The notes beneath the pieces are model-generated. The model searched no databases. It saw only the letters and a list, made by a program, of their open reading frames with translations, and was not told the DNA's origin. Shown here piece by piece: positions 213 through 53,646 of a stretch of 64,000 bases of DNA. Made by a program: the position numbers and the translations under genes. Origin of the DNA: a virus; IMG/VR virus record IMGVR_UViG_3300020202_000061, positions 250,950 to 314,949 of that record, one strand, 5' to 3'. Every line of letters starts with the position of its first letter. Position 1 is the first letter of the stretch.

Positions 213-241
213 TTGACATTCCCGAGAGTATCATCTAAATA
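213..241 (+). promoter_or_regulatory. sigma70-like promoter of the phage consensus family; drives the tRNA-Asn pair
   Basis: TTGACA 213-218; 17-nt spacer; TAAATA 236-241; tRNA starts 18 nt downstream. Confidence 0.65.
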
Positions 242-258
242 CCCGTCACCAAACATAT

Positions 259-334
259 TCCCCAGTAGCTCAGTTGGTAGAGCGTTTGACTGTTAATCAA
301 AATGTCGGAGGTTCGAGACCTTCCTGGGGAGCCA
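259..334 (+). tRNA. tRNA-Asn (GTT)
   Basis: 76-nt cloverleaf; acceptor tccccag/ctgggga; anticodon loop ctGTTaa; T-arm ggttcgagacc; encoded CCA. Confidence 0.85.
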
Positions 335-344
335 AATGTCCTAT

Positions 345-420
345 TCCAGACAACGCACCGGGTGTGCGGGCTGGCTGTTAACCAGTATCGAGCTAGGTTC
401 GAGTCCTAGGTCTGGAGCCA
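345..420 (+). tRNA. tRNA-Asn (GTT), second divergent copy
   Basis: acceptor tccagac/gtctgga; D-stem cgca/tgcg; anticodon stem gctgg/ccagt with loop ctGTTaa; T-stem ctagg/cctag; CCA. Confidence 0.75.
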
Positions 421-579
421 AAATCCCATTAGTTCCGCGCTAGGGCCTATTGTCCCATCCCCACTGACAATAACAAGGTCGCAAACAAATCCTGATGATG
501 GATCGGGAGAGGTCGGGTTCGCTCCGACTGCTTGACATCCCTTGATTTGTTACCATTTTCTCTCAGGGGAGAATCCATC

Positions 580-894
580 ATGACAGAAGATTTCAAGTTC
601 GGCTTTGGGCGTTTTCTGAGCGAGCCCGAGATGGTCACGGACCTGATCGACAACAGGTTGACGACTCAGGACAGGGCGGAATTCCGTAAGACTCCGGAAC
701 AGGACCTGATCATACTCCACCACGGCCTGGGCATGTGGATCAGGAACTTCTACGGGCTCTGGCGCGAGGATAACCCTTACACCAAGGTCAACGCTGGGCC
801 TAATTCCGAAGGAATCATTGATGATCCGCTGTTTCCGGATCAGGTCAGCCAGCGCATCATCGAGGCAGCGTGGCGTAAACTCCGCATCGACTAA
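580..894 (+). CDS. hypothetical protein
   Basis: ORF 532..894; ATG 580 preceded by aggggagaatcc RBS. Confidence 0.5.
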   Translation: MTEDFKFGFGRFLSEPEMVTDLIDNRLTTQDRAEFRKTPEQDLIILHHGLGMWIRNFYGLWREDNPYTKVNAGPNSEGIIDDPLFPDQVSQRIIEAAWRKLRID

Positions 895-897
895 TCC

Positions 898-926
898 TTG
901 ACATTTCGAAACCTCAGGATTATGCT
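898..926 (+). promoter_or_regulatory. sigma70-like promoter
   Basis: TTGACA 898-903; 17-nt spacer; TATGCT 921-926. Confidence 0.5.
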
Positions 927-932
927 GGGGTT

Positions 933-3003: not shown

Positions 3004-4123
3004 TATCATCCATAAATGGCCCAAGCTGAAAACTGATGGCGAACGCCTGGGAATGCTCCGCGCCATCGCCACGGATAGTGATTTTTGGTTCTGTCTCCAT
3101 CTGAATTCGGAGAATCGTCCGACCAATCCCTATCAGATGGTATTCGGTCCGAATCCCACCTACGGAAGCGGTGTGGTTCACGGAGTGTTTCAGAAACTGG
3201 TTTATGCGTTGGAGCGGCAAGGACTCAAGCAGGAGCGCATGATCCAGGCCGTCCAGGCATTTGCCGGAGCCTGCACCCAAGAGGAATGGGAACTCTTCTA
3301 CATGCCCATCCTCAATCAGATTCGTCCCTCGATCTATGTGCCGCCACATCTGTTTAATCGAGTTGCTCCAGAAGAGTTTCGAATCCGCTGGCCCAGGCTG
3401 ATTCCGATGAAACCAGTCGATGAGAATTGGCGCTATGAGACCGAATACTACGTGGAACCGTTACCCACCGAGGATTACCCCCGTCGAGAGATGTGGGTGA
3501 TCGAGCCGGTGCGGGTATACGGTGTGGACGAGTTCGAGCAGACCGTGGATCGTCCGGAGGTCGTAGCGATCTTCGAGAAACTCCTACTCACGGATGAGAT
3601 CGCGTTTCCGATCCTGTTGGAGGTCTACGCTGATCCCCTGGTGGTGCGTGACGTGCATTTCCCTCGGGTCAATCTCCATCTGGAAGAACGCATGGAACTC
3701 CTGGAGGATATCCGTCATCGCTTGGAAGATACCGTGGAATTCTCCGAGGTTCACAAGGTTGAAACCGCAGCGATGAACGATCAACTCGCGATGTTCTGGG
3801 AGCAGGGTTATCGAGGGATGGTTTTGCGTTCGGCTCGCAGCGATATGTTGGTGCAGCCCACAGACCGGGTTTCGGTTCGAATAGACAACTATACGGAACA
3901 GAACAAAATCCTCGAATCCATTGATGTGCTCGTGCGGAATGGATTATCCCCGCATACGCAAATTGTCAAAGCAGGCTTGAAATCTCCCAACGCCCGTCAA
4001 CTTTATGAGGGCGAGAATATCCCAAGACGGCAAACCGTGCGATTACTGACGTGCGGCACGGACCGACATGGGGATTTCATGTTTCCTGTATTTGACCAAG
4101 TGGAAGAGGACAAAAATGACTGA
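2987..4123 (+). CDS. ATP-dependent DNA ligase (minimal phage type)
   Basis: motif I KLKTDGER (KxDGxR) near the N-terminus; EGYRGMVLRS motif IV-like; about 378 aa, T7-ligase size. Confidence 0.75.
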   Translation: MKSVANIIHKWPKLKTDGERLGMLRAIATDSDFWFCLHLNSENRPTNPYQMVFGPNPTYGSGVVHGVFQKLVYALERQGLKQERMIQAVQAFAGACTQEEWELFYMPILNQIRPSIYVPPHLFNRVAPEEFRIRWPRLIPMKPVDENWRYETEYYVEPLPTEDYPRREMWVIEPVRVYGVDEFEQTVDRPEVVAIFEKLLLTDEIAFPILLEVYADPLVVRDVHFPRVNLHLEERMELLEDIRHRLEDTVEFSEVHKVETAAMNDQLAMFWEQGYRGMVLRSARSDMLVQPTDRVSVRIDNYTEQNKILESIDVLVRNGLSPHTQIVKAGLKSPNARQLYEGENIPRRQTVRLLTCGTDRHGDFMFPVFDQVEEDKND

Positions 4124-4385
4124 TGTAGGTGGCATTGCCAGCGAACGTTTGAAGAGCTTCATCGAGCGCATCGAACGTCTGGAAGAAGAGAAGTCTGGAA
4201 TCTCCGGTGATATCAAGGCGGTCTATGACGAAGCGAAGAGCACAGGCTTCGAGACCAAGATCATGAAGGAGATCATCAAGCGCCGTAAGAAGGATCGCAA
4301 GACTCTTCAGGAAGAAGACGCGCTGCTCGAACTCTACCAGCATGCTCTGGGTATGACCTCCGAGGGGGAAGACCCCGAAGAATAA
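4116..4385 (+). CDS. gapR: GapR-like nucleoid-associated protein (DUF2312)
   Basis: LKSFIERIERLEEEKSGISGDIKAVYDEAKSTGFETKIMKEIIKRRKKDRKTLQEEDALLELYQHALGM closely parallels Caulobacter GapR. Confidence 0.8.
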   Translation: MTDVGGIASERLKSFIERIERLEEEKSGISGDIKAVYDEAKSTGFETKIMKEIIKRRKKDRKTLQEEDALLELYQHALGMTSEGEDPEE

Positions 4386-5324: not shown

Positions 5325-5858
5325 ATGACGCTTCTCGTAAACTTGTTTGGCGGCCCAGGATGTGGCAAAAGCACGACCCGCGCTGGAATCTTCCACAAAC
5401 TAAAGCTGCGTGGTTACAACGTAGAGGAAGCGCCTGAGTACGCGAAACAACTCACTTGGGAAAAGCGTGGGATGGCTCTGACCTGTCAGCCCTACGTCCT
5501 GGGCAAGCAGTTGTTTACGATCTACCGCTTGATGGGACAGGTCGAAGCAATCATCACGGATTCTCCGATCATTCTGGGTTCGGTCTATGCACCGCCAGAG
5601 GAATTGCCATCGTTTCATCAGTTTGTGATCGACAAGTTCAACTCGTTTGACTCGATCAATTTCTACATCAATCGCGTGAAACCCTATAACCCGGCCGGTC
5701 GTAACCAGGACCTGGAGGGGGCCAAGCAGATCGATGACGTGGTCTTGAAATACATCCAGGCCCACAATATTCCCTACGAGAATATTGATGGCGACGAAGG
5801 TGGTGCGATTGAGGCCGCCGCACTCGTCGGATATATGTTGGAACGCAGAAGAACCTGA
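5325..5858 (+). CDS. P-loop NTPase, putative nucleotide/(d)NMP kinase
   Basis: Walker A GGPGCGKST at the N-terminus; 177 aa. Confidence 0.6.
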   Translation: MTLLVNLFGGPGCGKSTTRAGIFHKLKLRGYNVEEAPEYAKQLTWEKRGMALTCQPYVLGKQLFTIYRLMGQVEAIITDSPIILGSVYAPPEELPSFHQFVIDKFNSFDSINFYINRVKPYNPAGRNQDLEGAKQIDDVVLKYIQAHNIPYENIDGDEGGAIEAAALVGYMLERRRT

Positions 5859-8752
5859 TGTACATCGATGCCGCACAAATCCAAAAGGATGGGAATCGTA
5901 TCTATGTGAGTGAGAGGGGCAAGGATGGTCAAAGGATCATCAAGTCCCAGATGCCTCCATATGTGCTCTACTATACCGACCCGGATGGCAATTTCACCAG
6001 TATCTACGGGGACAAGCTAAAGCGCGTCCACAATACCTCACGCCGTGCCCACGAGAACGATCTCCAATACTACAGGGATCGCGGGTGCAACATTTTCGAA
6101 TCCGACGTGAAGCCGGTCTTCCGTGTGTTGGAGGAGAAATACGGGCATCTTGATGATTTGCCCAGTTTGAATGTGGGCATCATCGATATCGAGGCCGACA
6201 AGGACCCGAAGAAGGGCTTCACCCGCGTGCGTGATCCCTACGCGATCATCAACGCGTTGACCATCTATAAGAAGCACCTGGACACCTACATCACTCTGAT
6301 TGTGCCACCACCGAATCTCACGGTCGCACAGACCGAATCGATTCTGGCCAATACCGGACATCAAGCAGAGGATGGTAGCTACGTCGAGGGGCCGGGCCGA
6401 GATGAGTTCTCCGATCTCACTGAGGAACATGGATACTTCGTCTGTGAGGATGAGGCCGATCTTCTTCTGACGTTTCTGGAACTGATCGAGGATATCGACG
6501 TGCTGACCGGTTGGAACAGCACGTTCTTCGATATTCCCTATCTGATCCAGCGCATGCGTATCGTGTTGGGCGGAGAATCCATCAACAAACTCGCGATGGA
6601 AGACGGCACGGATCAGCATCCGTATGATCCAACGTCGGAGAGTGTCACCCACATTCAGAGAATGAACCTGTTTCCGACCGTTCCCAAACAGCGCCATGTG
6701 GAACGTTTCGGCACGTTCGAGACCGTCTACGATCTGTGTGGTCGCGTCCATCTGGACTATCTGGAACTCTACCAGAAGTTCCCCCATGAGGAGCTTCACT
6801 CCTATACCCTGGACTTCGTTCTGAAGCATGAGGTCAAGCAGTCCAAGGTTGTCTACGAGGGGAGCCTCGACCAGCTATACCGTCTGAACATTCGTAGATT
6901 CGCCGCCTATAACCGTCAGGATGTTGCCGGGTTGAAGGCGTTGGACGCGAAGAAGAAATACATCGATCTGGCCAACGTCATGGCGCACATGGCCAGTGTG
7001 ACTCTGCGCGAAGTTCTGGGTTCGGTGGTGATCATCGAACAGGCCATCTTGAAGCGTCTGCACAAGGACAAGCTGATCTGTTTCGACAAGATGGAGAAGC
7101 AACACGACCTCCCAATTCCAGGTGCGTTCGTGGTCAACCCAGAGAAGGGTGATTATCGCTGCGTAGCCTCATACGACTTCAACTCGCTGTATCCGACGAC
7201 GATTCGTCTTGTCAATATCAGTCCGGAACAGATCATTGGTCAGTTCGATCTGAACCGTACCATCACGAAGTGGCGCAAACACTTTGTGGATTACGGTGGG
7301 GACACCGGCCGCAAGGATGCCGGAACCAAGGCATGGTCGCATTTCACCGGAGTGCTCGAATACCATGACGTGATCGATGAGACCGAGGAACAACTCACCC
7401 TGGTCTTCGAAGGCACTGGTGAAGAGATCACTCTGACCGGGAAGGAATGGAAAGAGGTCCTCAAGGAGAACAACTGGTCGATCAGCGGATTCGGCACGGT
7501 CTTCGATCTATCCCGAGAGGGTATCGTCACCAAGTGCATGACTGAGTGGTATGCGGACCGCGTGAAGCTCCAGGATCAGAAGAAGAAATACGGCAAGGCC
7601 CAGGAGGGTGTAAACGATCCGGATAGACTGAAGGAGTTGAAGGAGCTTGAAGCCTATTACGACATGCTCCAGCAGGCGAAGAAGCTGTTCCTGAACTCCA
7701 CTTACGGAGCCTACCTGAACTCGTATTTCCGCTTCAATGATCCCCGCTTGGGTGCGTCGGTCACGCTGAGTGGTCGTGTCATGACCAAGCACATGGTGAA
7801 GCAGACCTCCTATGTGATGACCGGGGTCTACGATTTTGATCGCCGCGCCATCATCTATGGTGACACTGACTCCTGCTACGCTACCATGCACTGGTATATG
7901 CAGCAGAATGGTATCGAGATCACCGACCGCAACATGGTGAAGCTCGCGGACGAACTGGGTGAGAAGATCAACGCCAGTATGCCTCCGTTCCTGGAAGGCG
8001 CGTTCCTGATCGACCAGAAGCGTGGTGAGATACTCGAAGCCGGTCGAGAGATCGTCGGTCGCCGTGGTCTGTTTAAGGACAAGAAGAAACGCTACGCTCT
8101 GCACATCATCGACAAGGAAGGCAAAACGGTGGACGATCTCAAGATCGTCGGTATGGAAACGCGCCGCTCAGACACTCCCAAGCATATCCAGGAGTTTCTC
8201 ATCCAGTGCCTTACCCAGACCATCAAGGAGAACAAATCTTATGCGGAGATTCGCCAGATCGTGGATGAATTCCGTGCAGGATTCCGCAAACTTGATCCCT
8301 GGCGCATCGGTTCGCCCGGCCGCGTCAAGAAGCTGGCCACCGCCACGAAGAAACACAACGTCTACAACAGTCGCACCGAGGATGGTGTGGTCGGGCTGGC
8401 CAAGCCAAACTCGCATTTCTACGTGAAGGCGGCACTCAACACGAATACCTTGATGACCCACTACAACGAGACCCGTTGGGACGTGATCCGTGACGGCGAT
8501 AAGGTCGAGGTTCTTTACCTTAGTCCGAACGAATTCGATATGGACGTGGTTGGCATCCGCACGGGTGAAACCTATGTCCCGGAGTGGTTCAAAACCCTCC
8601 CGGTGGACCGCGCCCGAATGGAGCAGAAATTGATCGATCAGAAACTCCACAACGTTCTTGGGGATGTTCTGGAGTGGGATTTTACCCCACAAACAAACTA
8701 TGCATCTGAAGTATTTGAGGAAAACACGGATTTCTACTCCATGGCGGGTTGA
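5858..8752 (+). CDS. family B DNA polymerase
   Basis: exo motif IIDIEADKD; motif B KLFLNSTYGAY (Kx3NSxYG); motif C IIYGDTDS; 964 aa. Confidence 0.9.
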   Translation: MYIDAAQIQKDGNRIYVSERGKDGQRIIKSQMPPYVLYYTDPDGNFTSIYGDKLKRVHNTSRRAHENDLQYYRDRGCNIFESDVKPVFRVLEEKYGHLDDLPSLNVGIIDIEADKDPKKGFTRVRDPYAIINALTIYKKHLDTYITLIVPPPNLTVAQTESILANTGHQAEDGSYVEGPGRDEFSDLTEEHGYFVCEDEADLLLTFLELIEDIDVLTGWNSTFFDIPYLIQRMRIVLGGESINKLAMEDGTDQHPYDPTSESVTHIQRMNLFPTVPKQRHVERFGTFETVYDLCGRVHLDYLELYQKFPHEELHSYTLDFVLKHEVKQSKVVYEGSLDQLYRLNIRRFAAYNRQDVAGLKALDAKKKYIDLANVMAHMASVTLREVLGSVVIIEQAILKRLHKDKLICFDKMEKQHDLPIPGAFVVNPEKGDYRCVASYDFNSLYPTTIRLVNISPEQIIGQFDLNRTITKWRKHFVDYGGDTGRKDAGTKAWSHFTGVLEYHDVIDETEEQLTLVFEGTGEEITLTGKEWKEVLKENNWSISGFGTVFDLSREGIVTKCMTEWYADRVKLQDQKKKYGKAQEGVNDPDRLKELKELEAYYDMLQQAKKLFLNSTYGAYLNSYFRFNDPRLGASVTLSGRVMTKHMVKQTSYVMTGVYDFDRRAIIYGDTDSCYATMHWYMQQNGIEITDRNMVKLADELGEKINASMPPFLEGAFLIDQKRGEILEAGREIVGRRGLFKDKKKRYALHIIDKEGKTVDDLKIVGMETRRSDTPKHIQEFLIQCLTQTIKENKSYAEIRQIVDEFRAGFRKLDPWRIGSPGRVKKLATATKKHNVYNSRTEDGVVGLAKPNSHFYVKAALNTNTLMTHYNETRWDVIRDGDKVEVLYLSPNEFDMDVVGIRTGETYVPEWFKTLPVDRARMEQKLIDQKLHNVLGDVLEWDFTPQTNYASEVFEENTDFYSMAG

Positions 8753-8777
8753 CAATCCTGGGGTTTTCCCCTAAGTG
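8749..8777 (+). promoter_or_regulatory. sigma70-like promoter with GGGGTTTTCCCC dyad spacer
   Basis: TTGACA 8749-8754; 17-nt spacer atcctggggttttcccc; TAAGTG. Confidence 0.45.
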
Positions 8778-11292: not shown

Positions 11293-11370
11293 ACGCTATA
11301 TACTAAGAGGCACCGAGGGTTTCAGATGCCTCTATGGGGATTCCAAATCAACAACGGGGTCGAACAACGA

Positions 11371-13305
11371 ATGTCTAATCTCTTCGCGGATTTCAAGACA
11401 ACTTTCGAAAAAACCAGGAAAACCGAACTCTCTCTCCAGGAATACTTGGACCTGTGCAAACAGGATCGAATGGCTTACGCCTGGGCGGTGGAGAGAATGC
11501 TGGCGGCTATCGGCGAGCCCAAGCTAGTTGACACGTCCGAGGACCCGCGCCATTCCAGAATCTTCCTGAACCGCACCATCAAGGTGTATGACGTGTTCAA
11601 GGATTTCTACGGGATGGAGGCGACCATCGAAAAGATCGTCGCCTTCTTCATGAAGGCCGCTCAAGGTCTGGAAGAGAAGAAGCAGGTTCTCTATCTGATG
11701 GGGCCGGTTGGATCGGCTAAGTCCTCTCTGGCAGAGCGTCTCAAGGCTCTGATGGAGAAGATGCCGATCTACGTGCTCAAGGCGGGTGATCAAATCAGCC
11801 CGGTGTTCGAGAATCCCTTGGGTCTGTTCGATCCGAACGTGTGGAGTGATCGCCTCCAAGAGGAATACGGGATTCCTCGTCGTTATCTGACCGGGTTGAT
11901 GTCGCCTTGGGCGGTAAAGCGCCTGAACGAGGACTTCGACGGGGATATCAGCAAGTTCAGTGTGGTGAAGCTCTACCCGAGCAAGCTCAAGCAGATAGCG
12001 ATCTCCAAGGTCGAACCCGGTGACGAGAACAACCAAGACATTTCGTCTCTGGTCGGTAAGGTTGATATCCGCAAGCTGGCGGAGTTCTCCGCTCGTGATA
12101 CCGATGCCTACAGCTACTCCGGTGGTCTCTGCTTGGCCAACCAGGGCGTGCTGGAGTTCGTCGAGATGTTCAAGGCACCGATCAAGATGCTGCATCCGAT
12201 GCTCACCGCGACCCAGGAGGGCAACTACAACGGCACCGAGGCGATCTCTGGTATTCCGTTCCAGGGTGTGATTCTGGCCCACTCCAACGAATCCGAATGG
12301 GAGTCGTTCAAGAGCAACAAGAACAACGAGGCATTCCTCGACCGCATCAGCATCATCAAGGTCCCTTACTGCCTGCGTGTCACGGACGAGACCAAAATTT
12401 ACCAGAAGCTCTTGCGTGATTCGTCCCTGGACAAGGCTCCATGCACACCCAAGACGCTGGAATTGCTCTCCCAAATGAGCGTGCTTTCCCGTCTGATCTA
12501 TCCGGAGAACTCTTCGATCCATTCGAAGATGAAGGTCTACGATGGTGAGAACATCAAGGAAACCGATCCCTACGCCAAATCTGTTCAGGAATATCGTGAA
12601 CTGGCCGGGGTCAACGAGGGTATGACCGGTCTCAGCACCCGCTGGGCTTTCAAGGTGCTGTCATCGGTGTTCAATTATGATCCGAACGAGATCGGCGCGA
12701 ATCCGGTCCATCTGTTCCGTATCTTGGAGGACAAGATCACTGAGGAACAATTCCCGAAGGAAGTCGAAGAGGACCTTCGTGAACACCTCCAGTGGATCAA
12801 GGCCAAGTACATCGATTTCATCGGCAATGAAATCCAGGTTGCCTACCTGGAGTCCTACACCGAATACGGCCAGAACATGTTCGACCGCTACATCGTCTAT
12901 GCGGATCATTGGATCGAGGATCGGGACTATCGTGATTCCGAGACCGGCGAGATGTACAACCGCGAAACCCTGAATAAGGAACTCGAAAAGATCGAGAAGC
13001 CCTCCGGTATCGCGAATCCCAAGGAATTCCGTAACGAGGTGGTCAACTACTCTCTCCGTTACAAGGCCAACCACGGCAAGTATCCGAGGTGGAACTCCTA
13101 CGAGAAGCTCAAGGAAATCATCGAGAAGAAGATGTTCGCGAACATCTCTGATCTCCTGCCGGTGATCTCGTTCGAGAAGAAATCCTCCGAGGAGCACGAG
13201 AAGAAGCACAAGGATTTTGTGCAGCGCATGAAAGAGAAGGGATACAGCGAGCGCCAGACCCGTATCGTCGTGGACTGGTTCATGAAGGTACAGAAGTCCA
13301 ACTGA
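11371..13305 (+). CDS. prkA: PrkA/YeaG-family serine protein kinase
   Basis: N-terminus LQEYLDLCKQDRMAYAWAVERMLAAIGEP and P-loop YLMGPVGSAKSSLAERLK parallel E. coli YeaG; alternative start 11326. Confidence 0.85.
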   Translation: MSNLFADFKTTFEKTRKTELSLQEYLDLCKQDRMAYAWAVERMLAAIGEPKLVDTSEDPRHSRIFLNRTIKVYDVFKDFYGMEATIEKIVAFFMKAAQGLEEKKQVLYLMGPVGSAKSSLAERLKALMEKMPIYVLKAGDQISPVFENPLGLFDPNVWSDRLQEEYGIPRRYLTGLMSPWAVKRLNEDFDGDISKFSVVKLYPSKLKQIAISKVEPGDENNQDISSLVGKVDIRKLAEFSARDTDAYSYSGGLCLANQGVLEFVEMFKAPIKMLHPMLTATQEGNYNGTEAISGIPFQGVILAHSNESEWESFKSNKNNEAFLDRISIIKVPYCLRVTDETKIYQKLLRDSSLDKAPCTPKTLELLSQMSVLSRLIYPENSSIHSKMKVYDGENIKETDPYAKSVQEYRELAGVNEGMTGLSTRWAFKVLSSVFNYDPNEIGANPVHLFRILEDKITEEQFPKEVEEDLREHLQWIKAKYIDFIGNEIQVAYLESYTEYGQNMFDRYIVYADHWIEDRDYRDSETGEMYNRETLNKELEKIEKPSGIANPKEFRNEVVNYSLRYKANHGKYPRWNSYEKLKEIIEKKMFANISDLLPVISFEKKSSEEHEKKHKDFVQRMKEKGYSERQTRIVVDWFMKVQKSN

Positions 13306-13316
13306 GGGCTATCATA

Positions 13317-14606
13317 GTGACCACGGTCATTGACAGACGTAAGACCGACCGCCAGAAGAACCTCTCCAATAGGCAGAGGTTCATCAAAAGAGCCAAGGAA
13401 GCGATCAAGAAGTCGATCCGTGGAGCCATCCTCAATAAGGATCGCTCGATCAAAGACTCATCCGGCGGTAATGTTCGAATCCCCAACAAAGGGACGACAG
13501 AGCCGAATTTCCGCAATGGAGACGGTGGTCGTAAGATCATCGTTCGTCCGGGTAATCCAGGCACTGTGCCGGGTGACAAGATTCCACGTCCCAGAAAGGA
13601 TCAGACTTCGGGCCGTGGTAACAGTGATCCATCCAAAGACCCCGCTGAGTTGATGGATGAGTTCGAGTTCACGCTGACCCGTGAGGAATTTCTGGACTTC
13701 TTCTTTGAGGACCTGGAATTGCCCAACTTGGTCAAGACCGCCCTCAAAGAGGTGGTCGAGTACAAATGGTCCCGTTCGGGATTTGCCTCGGTCGGTATGC
13801 CGTCGAATCTCGACATTACCCGAACCTTCATCAATTCGATGGGTCGCCATTTCGCTCTGGCCGGAGCCTACCAGAAAAAGATCGACGAACTTCGCGCTAA
13901 TGGTGGATCGGAAGAGGATATCGCGCTCTGGGAGAAGAGGAAGCGGACCATCCCGTTCATGGATGACGTGGACCTGCGCTATCGCCTGTTTGTGAAGCAG
14001 CCCAAGCCGATCACCAAAGCGGTAATGTTCTGTCTGATGGACGTATCTGGCAGTATGGGCGAGTACGAGAAGGACTTGGCCAAGCGTTTCTTCATGCTCC
14101 TCTACATGTTTCTGGAGCGCAAATACGAGTCGGTCACCGTGGTGTTCATCCGTCATACCACCGAAGCCAAAGAGGTGGACGAGCAGGAGTTCTTCTACTC
14201 GAAAGAATCAGGTGGAACCGTGGTCAGCACGGCTCTGGAAATGACTGCTGATCTGATTCAGCGGCGCTTCAACAGTTCAGACTACAACATCTACGTGAGC
14301 CAGTGTTCGGACGGCGACAATGCCTACGATGACAACTCCGTGTGCACCCAGATCATCCGTGAGGATATTCTGCCTTATGTCCAGTATTTTGCGTATGTCC
14401 AGGTCGGACATCAGCGCGATGAGATGGCCAACATGTGGGGTGTGTTTGCGGGTCGTCTTGGGAACACCACGAGCACGAATTCCCTCTACGAGGTTTATAA
14501 GGAGATCGAGAAGAATACCTCCCATTTCAAGGTGAAGAACCTGAATGGTCCTGCCGACATCTACCCGGTGTTTCGCGAACTCTTTGAGAAGGACATCAAG
14601 GTATGA
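13317..14606 (+). CDS. yeaH: YeaH/YhbH family protein (DUF444, UPF0229)
   Basis: VIDRRKTDRQKNLSNRQRF…EFLDFFFEDLELPNL…VMFCLMDVSGSM…FFYSKESGGTVVS…DIYPVFRELF colinear with E. coli YeaH. Confidence 0.85.
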   Translation: MTTVIDRRKTDRQKNLSNRQRFIKRAKEAIKKSIRGAILNKDRSIKDSSGGNVRIPNKGTTEPNFRNGDGGRKIIVRPGNPGTVPGDKIPRPRKDQTSGRGNSDPSKDPAELMDEFEFTLTREEFLDFFFEDLELPNLVKTALKEVVEYKWSRSGFASVGMPSNLDITRTFINSMGRHFALAGAYQKKIDELRANGGSEEDIALWEKRKRTIPFMDDVDLRYRLFVKQPKPITKAVMFCLMDVSGSMGEYEKDLAKRFFMLLYMFLERKYESVTVVFIRHTTEAKEVDEQEFFYSKESGGTVVSTALEMTADLIQRRFNSSDYNIYVSQCSDGDNAYDDNSVCTQIIREDILPYVQYFAYVQVGHQRDEMANMWGVFAGRLGNTTSTNSLYEVYKEIEKNTSHFKVKNLNGPADIYPVFRELFEKDIKV

Positions 14607-16093
14607 GCCTGCTCTGGAATGATAATGAATGGACTTTCCCGCTCATCGACAAGGTCTACAAGGAGATCGAGCAGATCGGCGTGGGTGAGATGGGTCTGGA
14701 CATCTTCCCGAATCAGATCGAGGTCATCAGCAGTGATCAGATGCTGGACGCTTATGCAAGCCATGCCATGCCAGTCATGTATAAGCACTGGTCCTTTGGC
14801 AAGTCGTATTCGGTCAACAAGAAACTCTATGAGAACGGTCAGCAGGGTCTGGCCTACGAGGTCGTAATCAACTCGAATCCCTGCATTGCCTATCTCATGG
14901 AGGACAACACCATGACCATGCAGGCTTTGGTCATGGCCCATGCCAGCATCGGTCACAACAACTTCTTCAAGACTAACTACCTGTTCCAGCAGTGGACCGA
15001 TCCGGATGGGATCATCGACTACCTGATCTTCGCCAAGAATTATGTGGCGAAGTGTGAGGAGCGATACGGTGCCGAACGAGTCGAGGAAGTTCTCGATTCC
15101 TGTCACGCTCTCATGGACCAGGGTATGGACCGCTTTAAGCGAGCCCGCAAACGTTCCCGTCAGGAGGAGAAGCTCCGTGCGGCCGAACGTGAAGCCTATC
15201 ACCAAAGTCGTGTGAGTGAGCTTTGGCCGGACACCTGGAAGTCCGAGACCCCGGCCCAGAAGGAAGAACGCAAGAAGCGGATTCTTCCGGAGCCCGAGGA
15301 CAACATCCTCTACTTCATCGAGAAGAACTCGCCGATCCTGGAGCCGTGGGAACGAGAGATCGTTCGTATCGTCCGTAAGGTATCGCAGTATTTCTGGCCT
15401 CAGATGCAGACCCAGGTCGGTAATGAGGGCTGGGCCACCCATACCCATTACTTCATTATGAATCGTCTCTACGAGAAGGGTCTGATCTCGGACGGTTCTC
15501 TGTTGGAGTTCTTCAAGTCCCACACGGGCGTTATCGCGCAGTATCGCATGCAGCGTCTGAACCCGTACTGCCTGGGATTCAACATTTTCCGCGACATCAA
15601 GCGTATGTGCGAGAAACCCACCGATGAGGATCGTGAATGGTTCCCCGATCTGGTCGGGATGAACTGGCTGGAAGCCGCGAAGGACGCGCGTGAGAACTAC
15701 AAGGATGAGAGCCTGATCCTCCAGTACCTCAGCCCCAAGGTGATCCGCGATCTTAAGCTTTTCTCGATCCTGGATGATTACGGCACGGACTCGATGAACT
15801 ATATCGTCCAGAACATCCACGACCGGGAAGGCTACAAGGAAGTTCGTCGATCCCTCTCTCGCAACTACGACATCAACATGAGAATTCCACAGATTCAGGT
15901 GTCGGATGTCAATGTGGATGGGGATCGCAAACTGATCCTTCGCCATACCCGTCACAACTATGTGCCGCTGGATCAGGCCGATCTCAAGGAAACTCTCCTC
16001 CATGTGAGGCGTCTCTGGGGGTTTGCGGTGCGTCTGGACTTCTACAATCCCGGCGCGGTCAGTCCCACGGATTGGGTAGCGGTGGGTGAATAA
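14603..16093 (+). CDS. spoVR: SpoVR/YcgB family protein
   Basis: 496 aa; conserved SpoVR stretches (MYKHWSFGKSY, GHNNFFK, GWATHTHY). Confidence 0.85.
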   Translation: MSLLWNDNEWTFPLIDKVYKEIEQIGVGEMGLDIFPNQIEVISSDQMLDAYASHAMPVMYKHWSFGKSYSVNKKLYENGQQGLAYEVVINSNPCIAYLMEDNTMTMQALVMAHASIGHNNFFKTNYLFQQWTDPDGIIDYLIFAKNYVAKCEERYGAERVEEVLDSCHALMDQGMDRFKRARKRSRQEEKLRAAEREAYHQSRVSELWPDTWKSETPAQKEERKKRILPEPEDNILYFIEKNSPILEPWEREIVRIVRKVSQYFWPQMQTQVGNEGWATHTHYFIMNRLYEKGLISDGSLLEFFKSHTGVIAQYRMQRLNPYCLGFNIFRDIKRMCEKPTDEDREWFPDLVGMNWLEAAKDARENYKDESLILQYLSPKVIRDLKLFSILDDYGTDSMNYIVQNIHDREGYKEVRRSLSRNYDINMRIPQIQVSDVNVDGDRKLILRHTRHNYVPLDQADLKETLLHVRRLWGFAVRLDFYNPGAVSPTDWVAVGE

Positions 16094-18405: not shown

Positions 18406-18434
18406 TTGACATATCCCGGAGTTTCCTGTAGACT
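18406..18434 (+). promoter_or_regulatory. sigma70-like promoter
   Basis: TTGACA 18406-18411; spacer tatcccggagtttcctg; TAGACT. Confidence 0.6.
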
Positions 18435-38302: not shown

Positions 38303-38331
38303 TTGACAACCTAGGGGTCTGAGAGTATCTC
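38303..38331 (+). promoter_or_regulatory. sigma70-like promoter
   Basis: TTGACA 38303-38308; spacer acctaggggtctgagag; TATCTC. Confidence 0.5.
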
Positions 38332-38337
38332 GGGGTT

Positions 38338-39937: not shown

Positions 39938-40275
39938 TGCTGGTAAACCTGATCGATGCGCGGTCGAATCGCTACGATGTCCATTGTGATGCGGAGCTTC
40001 GACCATCCTGGTTGGACAACGGATTGCCCGGCGCAACGCAATTCCCGGTGATCCGACCGAACACGGACATGGCCAAGCCCATGTTGTCTCTGCACATGCC
40101 CAACACCTGCTTGATCGAGATCATCAACCTCTGCCAGACCCTGGGATTTCCGGTCACCGCATATCTCTATGATCGGGGAACTCAGACCCGAATCCAGACC
40201 GAATACAAGCAGGTCGAAACCCTTCTGGAGCAGACAACCACAGAGAAAATCAACGCTCCAGAAAAAACCTCTTGA
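39937..40275 (+). CDS. hypothetical protein
   Basis: ORF 112 aa. Confidence 0.45.
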   Translation: MLVNLIDARSNRYDVHCDAELRPSWLDNGLPGATQFPVIRPNTDMAKPMLSLHMPNTCLIEIINLCQTLGFPVTAYLYDRGTQTRIQTEYKQVETLLEQTTTEKINAPEKTS

Positions 40276-40300
40276 CTTCCCGAACGGTTTCCCCTAAATA
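40272..40300 (+). promoter_or_regulatory. sigma70-like promoter of the main tRNA operon
   Basis: TTGACT 40272-40277; spacer tcccgaacggtttcccc; TAAATA 40295-40300. Confidence 0.65.
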
Positions 40301-40304
40301 CCCA

Positions 40305-40542
40305 TCACAAGCGGTGCCCAGCGGAGATGGTTGGGAGTAATTAAATGGTGAGTAATCATCAGCCGCTTCAACTTTTGAGGAACGAGTTACCACAATGACC
40401 CTGATTCGACGCAAACGAAAGATTAGCGCCTAATCACTCCGTCAGTCCACGGAGTGGTTCTAGGCTCCGTGGGTAATGGTACTCTCCCTAACTCCCACCT
40501 AAATCTGAGATAGGACGCCCCCACAAGGGGTTGTTGCTGTTT
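40305..40542 (+). ncRNA. structured leader of about 240 nt upstream of the tRNA cluster (function unknown)
   Basis: lies between promoter and first tRNA; mutually exclusive hairpins actccgt/acggagt versus ccacggag/ctccgtgg; long-range aagcgg/ccgctt pairing; cccc-acaa-gggg hairpin. Confidence 0.35.
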
Positions 40543-41119: not shown

Positions 41120-41195
41120 GCCAGATTACAGTTTAGTGGTAGAACACGCGGCCGATAACCGTGGAGCGGGGGTTCGATTCCCTCATCTGGCACCA
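41120..41195 (+). tRNA. tRNA with anticodon GAT (Ile-type) and atypical features
   Basis: 76 nt; acceptor gccagat/atctggc; CCA; anticodon stem cgcgg/ccgtg with loop ccGATaa (C33); 2-nt insertion before D-stem gttt/gaac. Confidence 0.6.
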
Positions 41196-41196
41196 A

Positions 41197-41279
41197 GGGC
41201 ACGGAGCTTTAGAGCCGACAGGAAAGGCAAGAGACTCTTACTCTCCCAGCATGGGGTTCGACTCCTCCCGTGCCCGCCA
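41197..41279 (+). tRNA. non-canonical 83-nt tRNA-like gene (8-bp acceptor, 4-bp T-stem, expanded D region) with Lys-type anticodon loop ctCTTac
   Basis: acceptor gggcacgg/ccgtgccc (8 bp); disc g + CCA; T-arm ggggttcgactcctc; D region 24 nt with hairpin gcc-gacaggaaa-ggc; anticodon stem gaga/tctc. Confidence 0.5.
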
Positions 41280-41280
41280 A

Positions 41281-41356: not shown

Positions 41357-41432
41357 GGACCTGTAGCTGAGAGGTTTAGCGGCTGGCTTTTACCCAGCGT
41401 CAACGGGAGTTCGATTCTCTCCAGGTCCACCC
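41357..41432 (+). tRNA. tRNA-Lys (TTT)
   Basis: acceptor ggacctg/caggtcc; anticodon stem gctgg/ccagc with loop ctTTTac; T-arm gggagttcgattctctc. Confidence 0.75.
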
Positions 41433-41446
41433 AGTTTCCCAGTAAT

Positions 41447-41530
41447 GGGCCGCGAGAGTATAGCAGTACAGGAATCTGCACCGGGCTTTTAATCCGGCCT
41501 CAAGGGGTTCGACTCCTCCGTGGCTCGCCA
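41447..41530 (+). tRNA. non-canonical 84-nt tRNA-like gene (8/4 architecture, expanded D region) with anticodon loop ctTTTaa; paralog of the 41197 gene
   Basis: acceptor gggccgcg/cgtggctc (8 bp, two G·U); g + CCA; identical T-arm ggggttcgactcctc; D hairpin gcag-tacaggaat-ctgc; anticodon stem ccggg/tccgg. Confidence 0.5.
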
Positions 41531-41534
41531 ATTG

Positions 41535-41578
41535 AAAAACCCCCGAAGTTTCCCATCTTGGAAACACGGGGGTTTTCT
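41535..41578 (+). terminator. rho-independent terminator closing the tRNA operon
   Basis: aaaaaCCCCCG…(nested hairpin gtttcc/ggaaac)…CGGGGGTTTTct. Confidence 0.6.
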
Positions 41579-41907: not shown

Positions 41908-41936
41908 TTGACAGAACTCCGGGGAATCCCCATAAT
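41908..41936 (+). promoter_or_regulatory. sigma70-like promoter driving tRNA-Arg (CCG)
   Basis: TTGACA 41908-41913; spacer gaactccggggaatccc; CATAAT. Confidence 0.6.
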
Positions 41937-42805: not shown

Positions 42806-43365
42806 GAATCTACACGATCAAAGAGGTTCCAGTCACCCAGGAGCACGGAAACTGGCATCGAGTTTTCCATATCAGTTTCAACGAGGTCTCGATCCCCAAT
42901 TATGGTGAATTCGACGACTGGCTTCGTCGTGTTGTCGCGGCCAAGCGTGATGGCGGCATCATAGGTCCGATGGATTACTACTATGTGCTGCTGGCCCACT
43001 ATCAGGGTTGGGTTTCCTGCAATGGATATTCGGGATCATTAGGTGATAGCGGACCTCGCTTGACCCATTACGAACTTCGCTGTCACCAACCACTGGCTGA
43101 GTTGTTCCTCCAGGTCTACTCACTTCCACAGGAAGAGTATGATCGGAATATCAAATACCTCAGGGATCGAGAGAATCGTGGTCGTGGATATTTTGACACC
43201 AACGAGGAGGTATTCTCATACGGTGATGTGGAGAAACTCGTGGCCGCCCATCGTGGGGAAATCCGAACCCTGGAGGAACAGCGTGCGGATTACGAAGCGG
43301 CCGAGAAGATTCGCCGCAAAAACGCTCGAAAACCCCGCAAAAAATCCCGTAGACAATCCCGATAA
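42802..43365 (+). CDS. hypothetical protein with basic C-terminal tail
   Basis: ATG 42802; 187 aa; KIRRKNARKPRKKSRRQSR tail. Confidence 0.5.
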   Translation: MRIYTIKEVPVTQEHGNWHRVFHISFNEVSIPNYGEFDDWLRRVVAAKRDGGIIGPMDYYYVLLAHYQGWVSCNGYSGSLGDSGPRLTHYELRCHQPLAELFLQVYSLPQEEYDRNIKYLRDRENRGRGYFDTNEEVFSYGDVEKLVAAHRGEIRTLEEQRADYEAAEKIRRKNARKPRKKSRRQSR

Positions 43366-43384
43366 TCTGTGTTAGGATCGGGAA

Positions 43385-48372: not shown

Positions 48373-48399
48373 TGAACATATTTAGGATTTCCCTACATA
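48372..48399 (+). promoter_or_regulatory. weak putative promoter upstream of the ArfB-like gene
   Basis: TTGAAC 48372-48377; 16-17 nt spacer; TACATA. Confidence 0.3.
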
Positions 48400-50033: not shown

Positions 50034-50062
50034 TTGACATTTCCTGGAGTTTCCAGTATAAA
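50034..50062 (+). promoter_or_regulatory. sigma70-like promoter
   Basis: TTGACA 50034-50039; spacer tttcctggagtttccag; TATAAA. Confidence 0.6.
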
Positions 50063-50509: not shown

Positions 50510-50510
50510 G

Positions 50511-50681
50511 ATGACACCGGTTCGTGAACTGCAACAGCAGTGTCGGCTGTTCCACGCCGATATGGAGCAGCGCAAGGCTGAGGTTTGCCGCGAGCGCCGC
50601 ACCATGACGGTCGGCGTGTTCATCATCACGGCGCTCCTGCTCGGGGCGTTCGGGGCCAAACTACTGACGGGGTTATTCTGA
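50511..50681 (+). CDS. small membrane-anchored protein
   Basis: ATG 50511; C-terminal TM VGVFIITALLLGAFGAKLL. Confidence 0.35.
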   Translation: MTPVRELQQQCRLFHADMEQRKAEVCRERRTMTVGVFIITALLLGAFGAKLLTGLF

Positions 50682-51199
50682 TGCTTGGTCTGTTCTATCC
50701 CACTGCGTTGGCGAATCTCTTCCGGGGTTCCACCTTGGACCCGGACCTGCCCGCGCCGAAACCCGTCCCGAGTCCGCAGCCACTGACCTATGAACGGGCG
50801 GAACCCGCCGTGACCTACGCTCGCCACAGCTTCAAGCCGAAGAGCCTGGAGCAGCATCGCGAGGAATTTCGCACAGCGTTTCAAACCGTTCTGACCCGCG
50901 TGGAGTCGGAACTGCGCTCACACCCCCACGAGCAGCCCAACCAGATCATGGTGATTCCCGGTGTCCCGGCGCGGCTCAAGGGATCGAGTCGCAAGACCAG
51001 CACGCCGGTCGGGGTTCTTCGGGATTTCCGCCACGGTCCGACCGACATGGTCCAATTCACCCGCACCATCAATGGGGTGGAGAAGATCGTCTCGGTTCCA
51101 CTGGAACGCCTGGATCAGGCCCAGGCGAAGCTGGTCGCACACATTGCGCGGCTTGCACCAACACCGGTCGCCGAACCCCTTCCCATCGCAGCGGAGTAG
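50681..51199 (+). CDS. hypothetical protein
   Basis: ATG 50681; 172 aa. Confidence 0.5.
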   Translation: MLGLFYPTALANLFRGSTLDPDLPAPKPVPSPQPLTYERAEPAVTYARHSFKPKSLEQHREEFRTAFQTVLTRVESELRSHPHEQPNQIMVIPGVPARLKGSSRKTSTPVGVLRDFRHGPTDMVQFTRTINGVEKIVSVPLERLDQAQAKLVAHIARLAPTPVAEPLPIAAE

Positions 51200-51202
51200 A
51201 CC

Positions 51203-51583
51203 ATGAGCGGGATCACCATCAGCGTCGAGTTGACCCCGTACAAGGTCAATCAGACCAAGAAGTTCATCAAGAAGCGGTTCGGTCTGATCGCCACGGATGA
51301 ACTCCTCACGGCGTTCCTCCAACAGCATCCGGATTTGGCCGTGGTCATTCATGAGTCGATTGATCCCACGCGTATGGACACGTACGACCGTGACAATTTC
51401 GTGGATGGGCTGACCCAGCATATCCTCGGTAAGGGTCGGTATTGGCCGTCCAACTCCGACATCTTCAAAGGCGTCGATCCGAAGGATTTCATCCAGGAAA
51501 TCTTCGTCATGGGCGAGGCCAAAGGCTGGAAGGTCGCCAAGTTGAAGGTGAAGAAGAAGGTCAAGAAAAAGGCGAAGAAGTGA
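51203..51583 (+). CDS. hypothetical protein with lysine-rich C-terminus
   Basis: ORF 126 aa; KLKVKKKVKKKAKK tail. Confidence 0.5.
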   Translation: MSGITISVELTPYKVNQTKKFIKKRFGLIATDELLTAFLQQHPDLAVVIHESIDPTRMDTYDRDNFVDGLTQHILGKGRYWPSNSDIFKGVDPKDFIQEIFVMGEAKGWKVAKLKVKKKVKKKAKK

Positions 51584-51873
51584 GCGAGGACAAGCACGAA
51601 CACGGCAACGTTCACTTTGCCTGGGCTCTAGGTGGGACGGGCGAGCGCGTGCACTACCGACTGGAGAGTGAAGGACGCAAGGGGCCTATCCGTGAACTCA
51701 CTCTCCAGCAGGCCGAATCCTTTATGTTGAATCCGGACCGGGATTACACCCCGAAGGATGGTGTGCTGAACCTAGAGAAATGGGTCGCCGCGAAGAAACT
51801 CCTGACCGAGACCATGTTCAAGCTGGAAAAGACCAAGCCCGGCACCATTGTCAGACCCGCCGCAAATCCCTAG
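51580..51873 (+). CDS. hypothetical protein
   Basis: GTG 51580 overlapping upstream TGA. Confidence 0.45.
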   Translation: MSEDKHEHGNVHFAWALGGTGERVHYRLESEGRKGPIRELTLQQAESFMLNPDRDYTPKDGVLNLEKWVAAKKLLTETMFKLEKTKPGTIVRPAANP

Positions 51874-51882
51874 ATTATCCCT

Positions 51883-52830
51883 ATGAATTTGGATAGGGCC
51901 GTTATCGCACTCCAGAAGGCCACGGGGTGGCCGGACATTTTCAGGACCAGATATGACGAGGTCTGCTTGCGTTTCAATATGCATCAGGCCATGTCGATCA
52001 CGGGCCTGGAAATCCGCAATTTTCCCGAGCGTATGAATTACTACTTGAATTTCCCCGGTTTGGAGGAGATTCCGTTGAGTTTCCTCGTCATGGAAGTGCC
52101 GACCAATAACAGCACGGTTCTGCATCGCACCCTGGCCGGACAATTCCACTCCTACCAGGGATTGCCATCGAAGGTTGTGATGAGCCCAATGGTGGACCCC
52201 ACTGGCGTGTCCAAATATCTCACCATGCAGGAATGGCACTGGAACGGGGTGCTCCACAACACCGAGGGGCCAGCCAGAATCACCTATCAGGGTTATCATT
52301 GTGACGAAACCCACCCGACCACACTAGACCCGATCAAGCCCTCGCAGGTGGTTCAGTTTTGGGATTCTGCGATTCTTGGTTGGTTCATCAACGGCACGAG
52401 AAAGGTGTGGCCGTTCCCGGCCACGGTTCAGCTAGAGGCGGGATGGTCCCTGCGCGAACGCGAGTCACCCTACTCGATGATCCGCCAAGAAGGGGTGAGA
52501 TCGTACTGGTGCCAGTCCGGCATGTTTCTGTTCCAGCGCGATCCCGACGACAAGGACACCAACACGGAATTCCTGGTCTCCAAGTTGCTCATCCATCAGC
52601 ACCAGGAGGAGATCGAGCAGGGCCGAATGATTCGCACTGGTCCCTGCATGTTCGAGTGGAACTTCAACGGGACCAACTACAGCGGAATCGAGAAGGAAGA
52701 AGCCTGCGTGAGGATGATGCGCTGGTTCGAGCAGGACATGCTCTCGCGTATCGATCCGTGGGGTCCGTTCTTCCAATCCCAACAGGACAAAATGATCCTG
52801 CTATCGAAGATCAAGGAGTTCGGATTTTGA
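51883..52830 (+). CDS. hypothetical protein, member 1 of a five-gene tandem paralog array
   Basis: 315 aa; WHWNGVLHNTEGPARITY repeat. Confidence 0.55.
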   Translation: MNLDRAVIALQKATGWPDIFRTRYDEVCLRFNMHQAMSITGLEIRNFPERMNYYLNFPGLEEIPLSFLVMEVPTNNSTVLHRTLAGQFHSYQGLPSKVVMSPMVDPTGVSKYLTMQEWHWNGVLHNTEGPARITYQGYHCDETHPTTLDPIKPSQVVQFWDSAILGWFINGTRKVWPFPATVQLEAGWSLRERESPYSMIRQEGVRSYWCQSGMFLFQRDPDDKDTNTEFLVSKLLIHQHQEEIEQGRMIRTGPCMFEWNFNGTNYSGIEKEEACVRMMRWFEQDMLSRIDPWGPFFQSQQDKMILLSKIKEFGF

Positions 52831-53621
52831 TCAAGAACTGGACGGACTTCGCGTCCTGCTATCCTCTAATGAAGGCTCTGGTCGATCTCATGCCGGGTGG
52901 GGAGAAGATCGCGGAAATGAGCTACGAGCCCATCCAGAACGATACCTCGTTCCGAGTAGATCGGCACTCCTATCTGGATGCGGAAAAGCTTCCAGAGGAA
53001 CTCCGCAAATACGCACCCAAGCAGGTGTTCTGGTGGAGGGACGGCCTTCGTCATCGAGCCCATGCACGACACGAGACGTTCCACGGCTCTGTGCTGCTCG
53101 CCTACGGCAACATCGCGATTGAACCGGCTCCACATCGGTCCTGGAGCACAGGCTCTTCCTGGGCCGCCAATTCGCCCATATTCAGCTACCCTCGTAGTCA
53201 GCCTTCATGGAAGGATGTTCCGGACGATTACCTGCATCGCGAAGATGGGTTTCCGGCACTAATCGGACTATTTGGGTATCATGGCAAGTTCAACCCCCTG
53301 ACCCAACTCCCCTATGGGGATGTGCGCAAGCGCACGATCACCTGCACCCATCTGACCGGTTCCTGGTGCCGCCACGGTCGTCCCTATCGCGCATTTGGAC
53401 CCTGTGGTATGATCATCCACTCCTACCGGGAATTCTGGGAGGACGGTAAGCGATCCAATTGCAGGCATTCCAGCGTGGACACGTATTGGCGTCCGACTCC
53501 GGAGAAGGACCTGGACGAGTTCAAAGCGTTCCGGGCTCGAATCCGAAAGACCGATCCCTACCAGAACATTTATTTCCTGGATTCGGTGAATCGCACGGAG
53601 TACGTGACCAGATTTGCTTGA
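52827..53621 (+). CDS. hypothetical protein, member 2 of the array
   Basis: TTG 52827 overlapping upstream TGA; FWWRDGLRHRAH repeat variant; start uncertain. Confidence 0.45.
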   Translation: MIKNWTDFASCYPLMKALVDLMPGGEKIAEMSYEPIQNDTSFRVDRHSYLDAEKLPEELRKYAPKQVFWWRDGLRHRAHARHETFHGSVLLAYGNIAIEPAPHRSWSTGSSWAANSPIFSYPRSQPSWKDVPDDYLHREDGFPALIGLFGYHGKFNPLTQLPYGDVRKRTITCTHLTGSWCRHGRPYRAFGPCGMIIHSYREFWEDGKRSNCRHSSVDTYWRPTPEKDLDEFKAFRARIRKTDPYQNIYFLDSVNRTEYVTRFA

Positions 53622-53646
53622 CAAAACTCAGTGAAATCCTTAAGAT
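53618..53646 (+). promoter_or_regulatory. sigma70-like promoter
   Basis: TTGACA 53618-53623; 17-nt spacer; TAAGAT. Confidence 0.55.

Follow-up and report, generated by a model that had tools for sequence, protein, structure and literature searches.

Dispersed operators served by one repressor are known from temperate phages, as in the case of the P1 C1 operators and of the operator/'stoperator' sites of mycobacteriophage L5 gp71; the L5 stoperators are orientation-dependent and lie mostly within transcribed regions. The early promoters of T4 have been described as excellent sigma70 promoters that show 'additional regions of consensus' ('uber' UP/−35/TGn/−10) (PMC2988021), promoter-early stem-loop (PeSL) cassettes are known from RB49/phi1, PST and nt-1 (PMC2839356, PMC4122927), and T4-family late promoters carry TATAAATA at −13 to −6, with (a/g)C-TAAATA as the Aeh1 variant (PMC2988020). 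Almost nothing is known about the transcription organisation of uncultivated huge phages. Here we describe the promoters in a 64,000-nt stretch of the IMG/VR virus record IMGVR_UViG_3300020202_000061 (positions 250,950 to 314,949 of that record; hereafter the window), which is part of an uncultivated, seemingly lytic huge phage of about 400 kb belonging to the T4/Rak2-like supergroup. What is new is a lineage-specific box of 12 bp, found in the spacer between the −35 and −10 hexamers at promoters of protein genes, which is a good candidate for an operator.

The pattern TTGACW-N17-TANNNW has 15 matches in the window versus 0.89 ± 0.91 in dinucleotide shuffles, none of 100 shuffles reaching 15; 14 are plus-strand matches and one is a minus-strand match, all pointing the same way as the gene that follows. 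The stricter TTGAC-N18-TANNNT gave 7 matches versus 0.83 in shuffles, and no hexamers were more enriched within 75 nt before genes than TTGACA (16 of its 30 copies) and TAAATA (13 of 18; p about 1e-13). A recurring promoter family had been proposed in a sequence-only reading of this DNA: the 20 sites that it listed are all present exactly as written and, together with further members found by a position weight matrix (PWM) scan and by inspection of intergenic regions (2481, 27721, 43350 and, on the − strand, 62798), the family comprises about 24 sites, all located, on a rough gene map, in gaps directly before co-oriented genes or tRNAs. The spacer, said to be exactly 17 nt, has this length at 21 of the 24 sites; 16097 and 22042 fit better with 18 nt (TAGAAT and TAGGAT, the latter form being conserved in a sister phage) and 27721 with 16. 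The position profile of 18 sites showed an A-rich segment at −43 to −39, a conserved C before TTGACA, invariant TTGA and TA, and a nearly invariant C and A in the rest of the −35 hexamer. Gene ends and promoters are very tightly packed: at 14 of the 24, no more than 5 nt separate the end of the upstream gene from the −35 hexamer. At six sites, namely 213, 8749 (DNA polymerase), 20240, 40272, 53618 and 62798 (−), TTGACA even contains the TGA with which the upstream gene stops.

We are highly confident that these sites are promoters. Their hexamers, their spacing, the A-tract at the UP-element position and the placement before transcription units point to recognition by a primary-sigma holoenzyme, as in the case of T4 early promoters. 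All of them would be read by host RNA polymerase carrying the primary, sigma70-type sigma factor; they would be spread over the early and replication region, each heading an operon or a tRNA cluster. As a family, they are statistically solid, yet nothing unusual in a large lytic phage and such as would be expected in a member of the T4 supergroup. Two sub-classes can be told apart: a protein-gene class with the consensus TTGACA, 17 (±1) bp, TAnnnT, and a tRNA class with the consensus AAACCyC-TTGACw-N17-TAAATA-CCC, in which AAACCyC provides an A-tract at the position of the proximal UP element and the discriminator is CCC-rich.

Two sets of relatives were compared with the window. L001, L003, L004 and L009 are distant, their polymerases being 45–66% identical to the family-B DNA polymerase (PolB) of the window. 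L006 and L008, both from one assembly, are contigs of a sister phage that were retrieved by a metagenome scan with the tRNA-promoter pattern: L006 is an 8-kb fragment syntenic with 17.1–24.3 kb of the window at about 74% nucleotide identity, and L008, phage-like and rich in ORFans, is another region of the sister genome. Both sister contigs carry the same promoter type as the window, and the architecture is found before tRNAs and genes of L001, L003, L004, L006, L008 and L009; its presence in relatives with polymerases that far diverged indicates that the promoter type is clade-wide.

By aligning the best-conserved sites of the window phage and of its sister, we derived the 12-mer yCCyrGrGTTTC; it has a direction, and its 5' half forms a short palindrome, CCyNrGG. 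The box lies at about −27 to −16, that is between −35 and −10, at spacer positions 3–14 in the forward and 5–16 in the reverse orientation. Since fixed k-mers (GGRGTTTCC and similar) were only 2–3-fold enriched and too fuzzy, a PWM was needed to describe it. With a leave-one-out PWM, a box of at least 10 bits occurred in 13 of 35 promoters versus a null of 0.2–0.5% per site, and in 9 of the 16 protein-gene promoters of the window. A PWM made from the sister phage alone gave 11 window matches of at least 12 bits versus 3.0 ± 1.4 expected, 7 of them inside promoters, which represent 1.2% of the window. The distribution of the strong box between the two sub-classes is clear-cut, with 13 of 22 promoters of protein genes or RNase P RNA versus 0 of 13 of tRNAs (Fisher p 6e-4). 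At 898 and 31064, the box is reversed and occupies nearly the same place as the forward one, for which chance gives about 1e-4 to 7e-4; reversed copies that are weaker or overlap a hexamer were observed at 16097 and 23150. Box promoters have −10 hexamers that deviate from the consensus (TAGACT, TAAGTG, TATGCT), no relationship to one another was found among the genes downstream, and the promoters of L001 and the other distant relatives do not have the box. The sister contig L008 carries a class-A RNase P RNA gene, which (2421–2774 of FRDC01001519.1; 149 bits versus a gathering score of 100) starts 4 nt after a box-containing promoter of the family at 2388–2416. Readings of the box as a CcrM (GANTC), Dcm (CCWGG), sigma54 or extracytoplasmic-function (ECF)-type site were dropped by eye, the core being variable (CCWGG, CCCGG, CCTAGG, CCTNAGG).

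The protein-gene promoters of the window are the following:

898–926, + strand: promoter with a reversed box at 908–919 (TCCTGAGGTTTC on the − strand), 16.3 bits; ATG 933 is the 7th nt after the −10.
2481–2509, + strand: candidate promoter TTGAAA with a box at 2488–2499, 15.0 bits; poor −10 (CACCTT), promoter status uncertain.
8749–8777, + strand: promoter overlapping the PolB stop codon, box at 8756–8767, 14.1 bits; the L001 orthologue is TTGAAG-N17-TATGTA.
16097–16126, + strand: promoter with an 18-nt spacer (TAGAAT) and a weak reversed box at 16101–16112, 10.5 bits.
18406–18434, + strand: promoter with a box at 18414–18425, 13.4 bits; 29/29 nt identical in L006, upstream flank unalignable.
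22042–22071, + strand: promoter TTGACG-N18-TAGGAT, box degenerate; L006 has CCAGGGGTTTTT there, with 14/18 identity in the spacer.
23150–23178, + strand: promoter TTGAAA-N17-TAAGTA with a reversed box at 23152–23163 overlapping the −35, 16.3 bits; this box is also upstream of a divergent TAAATA on the − strand (23141–23146).
25093–25121, + strand: promoter of an operon of about 12 genes, box at 25101–25112, 15.7 bits.
27721–27748, + strand: promoter TTGAAA-N16-TAGATT without a box.
31064–31092, + strand: promoter with a reversed box at 31074–31085, 11.1 bits.
37831–37859, + strand: consensus promoter TTGACA-N17-TATAAT without a box; the in-frame ATG 37866 is the 7th nt after the −10.
38303–38331, + strand: promoter TTGACA-N17-TATCTC without a box; ATG 38338 is the 7th nt after the −10.
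43350–43378, + strand: weaker candidate promoter TAGACA-N17-TAGGAT; ATG 43385 is the 7th nt after the −10.
50034–50062, + strand: promoter with the best box, at 50042–50053 (TCCTGGAGTTTC), 17.0 bits.
53618–53646, + strand: promoter TTGACA-N17-TAAGAT without a box; ATG 53653 is the 7th nt after the −10.
62770–62798, − strand: promoter TTGACA-N17-TACCTT with the box-like CTCTGGAGTTTT at 62775–62786, 10.2 bits, shifted 4 nt towards the −10; ATG 62763 is the 7th nt after the −10.

The synteny with L006 allowed us to compare five orthologous promoters, at which the −35 and −10 hexamers are kept and the sequence further upstream is unalignable, coding DNA being about 74% identical. The spacers compare as follows:

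18406, protein gene with box: 17/17 identical.
22042, protein gene with degenerate box: 14/18 identical.
23150, protein gene: 12/17 identical.
20240, tRNA: 7/17 identical.
17713, tRNA: 6/17 identical.

With respect to a saturated background of about 30% identity, 17/17 has a p of about 1e-9 and 14/18 of about 4e-5, and the tRNA spacers are at background. The identities of 17/17 and 14/18 next to unalignable flanks indicate that the box is under purifying selection where it is strong.

The likeness among spacers could have been produced by copying and not by function, if repeated cassettes were spread or homogenised by recombination or gene conversion, like the PeSLs of T4-type phages, which in RB49/phi1 are near-perfect TTGACA-N17-TATAAT cassettes (PMC4122927). 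Near-identical promoter blocks do stand before unrelated genes, promoter 25093 and those at 8366 and 9557 of L008 also share a stretch of the 5' untranslated region with its Shine-Dalgarno (SD) sequence, gcaat(t/c)aggagga, the similarity is concentrated in one promoter cluster, and spacers of tRNA promoters gain or lose the G-run/T-run between orthologues. Yet no stem-loop was found upstream (minimum free energy of the 58-mers −12.4 kcal/mol versus −13.5 ± 4.1 for random genomic 58-mers), and the −35 hexamer directly follows, or contains, the end of the upstream gene. Moreover, copying does not explain a 12-bp inversion within a 17-bp spacer, and 17/17 identity between phages with unalignable flanks needs purifying selection, not conversion within a genome. 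The missing stem-loop, the inversions and the conservation between genomes make a PeSL-like origin less likely, and we consider copying improbable as an explanation of the box.

Our preferred reading, to which we give middling credence, is that the sites are sigma70-type promoters bearing, on protein-gene operons only, a lineage-specific and probably repressor-binding operator box. The box would be the binding site of a lineage-specific DNA-binding protein, probably encoded by the phage, which, sitting between the hexamers of an otherwise near-consensus promoter, would exclude RNA polymerase; it would thus be a repressor operator common to many operons, used for instance in the shut-off of early ones. 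A shared repressor appears to be the simplest model because the box is discrete, information-rich, optional, lineage-specific, orientation-tolerant, selected and placed between −35 and −10. The sequence-only reading had argued that an element of the spacer is not needed for sigma70 recognition and may therefore be an operator: the two orientations, the selection, the restriction to the lineage and the position within the polymerase footprint speak in favour of it, whereas the box is found in a protein-gene subset only, and a T-tract at −18 is a known preference of RNA polymerase (PMC3130263).

This last point leads to another explanation, in which the box is an element intrinsic to RNA polymerase, a G-run/T-tract shape read in the spacer by the beta' zipper (about −21) and by sigma70 R451 (about −18) and boosting promoters with a non-consensus −10, as those of the box promoters are. 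The conserved positions span −27 to −16, with TTT at −19 to −17 centred on −18, where a preference T>A>C>G has been reported (PMC3130263); a loose 'Z-element' at −22 to −18 matters when the −10 is weak (PMC3173786), and T4 early promoters have extra consensus regions beyond the known elements (PMC2988021). However, the reversal of the box at 898 and 31064 and its shift of 4 nt at 62798 are a misfit with a positional, directional contact. In addition, neither the relatives that share the −35/−10 architecture nor the tRNA promoters, whose TAAATA is equally non-consensus, have the box, and the T7A1 Z-element, AACCT, bears no relation to it in sequence. We therefore regard a direct contact with the polymerase as rather unlikely, even if it is the strongest competitor of the operator.

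Several observations weigh against the operator reading as a whole. The box overlaps −24 to −17, which is contacted by RNA polymerase itself, and its TTT is centred on −18. Dyad symmetry, to be expected for many dimeric repressors, is weak. Orientation independence rests on two clear and two weak reversed boxes, and the conservation test on one sister genome. Neither a sigma factor nor a clear helix-turn-helix (HTH) was seen among the 25 best families per library (49 and 57 matched; Pfam and PHROGs) for the 112 window proteins, and the first genes of the box operons are without a DNA-binding domain; the only hint of a regulator comes from the gene at 25434–25664, whose product of 76 aa has a sub-threshold HTH match. 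GapR, a relative of which is encoded at 4116–4385, is said to bind AT-rich rather than GC-rich DNA. As regards sigma70 itself, a T at −7 is normally critical in the −10 hexamer and TAAATA has an A there; in fact, the last base of the −10 is A (TAAATA or TATAAA) at 9 sites, and 2481, 8749 and 38303 are also without T.

A search for the promoter-plus-box composite in 185,579 species genomes gave 17 scattered single matches in unrelated metagenome-assembled genomes, which is about the chance level among real promoters and gives no host clue.

The promoters before tRNAs are the following, those from 213 to 40272 being of the tRNA class:

213–241, + strand: AAACCCC-TTGACA-N17-TAAATA-CCC, before two tRNA-Asn genes.
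16389–16417, + strand: before tRNA-Ile/Leu; the tRNA 5' end (16424) is 6 nt after the −10.
17713–17741, + strand: before tRNA-Trp; the L006 orthologue keeps the −35, the −10 and the discriminator, the spacer being 6/17 identical.
20240–20268, + strand: before tRNA-Thr(cgt); in L006 the spacer is 7/17 identical and the G-run/T-run is lost.
24962–24990, + strand: TTGATT-N17-TAAATA, before tRNA-Thr(tgt); without a box.
29611–29639, + strand: before three tRNA-Ser genes.
40272–40300, + strand: followed by a 242-nt stretch and then by a tRNA-Arg/Lys/Ile cluster.
41908–41936, + strand: TTGACA-N17-CATAAT, before tRNA-Arg(ccg); the tRNA (41943) starts 6 nt after the −10.

None of these eight, and none of the 13 including relatives, has a strong box. 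AAACCyC, −35, −10 and CCC are all kept at the orthologous tRNA promoters of L006. To judge from the orthologues, the spacers in between are free to vary, and the G-run/T-run look of some of them is not maintained.

The spacers as a whole carry 4.36 bits of column information versus 1.36 ± 0.29 in shuffles, in keeping with the enrichment over shuffled controls expected from the sequence-only reading, and their mean pairwise identity is 5.56/17 versus 4.31 ± 0.12 in shuffles and 4.4–4.7 in flanking windows. One cluster of about 11 promoters, with a small one of three, accounts for the signal, seven looking unrelated, and it disappears when one representative per similarity cluster is taken; the conserved spacer holds for about half of the promoters. 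The GC-rich character attributed to the element did not hold, with 53% G+C in the spacers versus 54.6% in the window. As for the dyad said to be present in most spacers, a slight excess does exist, the best inverted repeat per spacer averaging 3.2 bp versus 2.75 in shuffles (p 0.004), and its arms of 2–5 bp vary in sequence and position from site to site; the conserved part is the directional 12-bp box. A larger dyad, AAACCyC / GrGGTTT, flanking the −35 with its axis at the 3' edge of the hexamer, reached p<0.002 at the consensus level and was dropped, with 2.9 of 7 complementary positions per site (partner permutation p 0.10). An RNA or DNA hairpin across the −35 was also dropped (mean z −0.66, inconsistent structures). 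Since the inverted repeats are short and heterogeneous and the dyad around the −35 is not site-specific, 'conserved dyad' is a poor description of these spacers.

In its strongest form, the proposal made for the same region would be that a single GC-rich dyad operator, served by one regulator, is common to essentially all promoters and coordinates them, every tRNA operon included. A weak resemblance to the box does occur in 4 of 13 tRNA promoters (at least 6 bits, versus 2–4% expected), and the inverted repeat around the −35 exists, weakly, at the consensus level. Nevertheless, the absence of a strong box from all tRNA promoters, the neutral identity of their spacers between orthologues, the seven promoters with unrelated spacers and the failure of the −35 dyad at single sites leave this proposal very improbable, and its extension to the tRNA operons is not supported.

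Returning to the operator box of the protein-gene promoters, a more far-reaching version can be put forward only tentatively, and we think it more doubtful than sound: the box could be the operator of a global repressor of the huge-phage lineage, shutting off early protein operons and the RNase P RNA gene of the sister phage, and the tRNA promoters would escape by virtue of a host-type −35 and a late-type TAAATA, so that tRNAs would be made throughout infection. The tRNA promoters might be read both early and late, because their −10 is the same TAAATA that is found in a second promoter-like class. In this class (c)TAAATA occurs without a −35 on either strand, with an ATG 5–6 nt on, at the following places:

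Window: 57588–57593 (+), 48379–48384 (−), 35720–35725 (−) and 23141–23146 (−).
L003: 263, 5345, 7944, 16337 and 15914 (−).

By its sequence, this class resembles T4-family late promoters, notably the Aeh1 variant. A BLASTP search with T4 gp55 (approximate sequence) found no homologue among the proteins of the window, which covers 64 kb of about 400 kb, and no homologue of gp33 was seen in the window.

The distance between −10 and start codon is also peculiar. At 9 of the 16 protein-gene promoters the ATG is the 7th or 8th nt after the −10 (binomial p 3e-10), at these positions:

933, 16134, 18442, 23186, 37866, 38338, 43385, 53653 and 62763 (−).

The same geometry is found in L003, L006 and L008, and the sites with either an ATG or a mature tRNA 5' end at such a distance are 11 in total. 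This is as expected if transcription starts there, in which case the mRNAs of the nine promoters would have no leader or almost none. Since leaderless mRNAs are discriminated against by IF3, an IF3-like protein encoded at 61822–62409 on the − strand (IF3_N, E 2.7e-15; weak IF3_C), in the operon of the minus-strand promoter 62798, may be relevant. An identical 11-mer, ggggttATGAG, runs from the −10 hexamer to the start codon at 898 (927–935) and at 38303 (38332–38340); similar sequences follow the −10 at 50034 (tGGGGTT) and 8749 (GGGGGTTT).

The surroundings of the tRNA promoters presented further features. The 242-nt stretch at 40301–40542, between promoter 40272 and the first tRNA-Arg, is without a convincing open reading frame (ORF) and had no match in Rfam, and it could be a novel small RNA or a long leader. 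An additional tRNA at 41121–41190 was detected by Rfam only (41 bits), and the tRNA-like stretches 41191–41280 and 41432–41540 end in CCA and were called by neither tRNA tool. The ORF 30024–30428, directly after the tRNA-Ser cluster and within an 860-bp stretch with few confident genes, contains GWLAGIIDGEG, similar to LAGLIDADG, and may encode a homing endonuclease.

Regarding the genome, the PolB gene (5858–8752) encodes a protein with about 33% identity to those of Rak2/121Q-like and other jumbo phages, and a metagenomic contig of 401,308 bp is on record with an identical PolB. The phages of GenBank yielded no Megablast match, so that none of them is close in DNA, and scans of IMG/VR for close relatives, with PolB peptides and the promoter pattern, were likewise without a match. 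The window has 17–18 tRNAs, all on the + strand. The gene of the GapR-like DNA-binding protein (4116–4385, +) adjoins PolB also in L001, L003 and L004, a complete PrkA/DUF444/SpoVR operon is present at 11326–16093 (+) and a PAS-domain protein gene at 59660–60214 (−); other Pfam matches were to a peptide deformylase, an RF-1 domain protein, a dCMP deaminase, a glutaredoxin and R2K ATP-grasp proteins.

Taken together, the window provides a concrete map of about two dozen promoters, with a separable tRNA-promoter class and a candidate operator of 12 bp by which a regulon is defined. Binding of the box by a phage protein would provide a handle on a new global regulator and help to predict early and late gene classes in metagenomic phages from nothing but their sequence; action of the box through RNA polymerase would make it a natural case of a spacer element that is both strong and defined by its sequence. 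Should the global repressor exist, then together with leaderless mRNAs and a phage IF3-like protein it would make up a self-contained, timed gene-expression programme.

Among the described systems, T4 early promoters share with those of the window that dozens of near-consensus sigma70 promoters occur in a large lytic phage, T4 being of the same supergroup, that all are on the early region's coding strand and have an A-rich upstream element and extra consensus regions, and that phage tRNA genes are driven by them. They differ in that here there is no TGn extended −10, the −35 is the canonical TTGACA and not the GTTTAC of T4, the extra consensus takes the form of a discrete 12-bp box of variable orientation on a subset only, many −10 hexamers are TAAATA and many transcripts are seemingly leaderless. 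PeSL cassettes are similar in being repeated, near-identical sigma70-like promoters, sometimes with a shared SD region, before unrelated small ORFs; their defining upstream stem-loop (GN-loop-CN) is missing here, and the extra conserved element is inside the spacer. With the spacer elements contacted by RNA polymerase (PMC3130263, PMC3173786) the box has in common conserved positions in −24 to −17 and a TTT centred on −18, whereas its sequence is different, longer, invertible, lineage-specific and missing from tRNA promoters. There is a likeness to the T4-family late promoters in (c)TAAATA, which is the −10 of the tRNA promoters and also occurs without a −35; unlike them, the tRNA promoters here have a perfect −35. 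Finally, as in P1 and L5, a short, largely asymmetric box is repeated at many promoters or intergenic sites and overlaps RNA-polymerase sites, so that one protein could control many operons; unlike those systems, in which the repressors are identified, the phage seems lytic and its box lies strictly between −35 and −10.

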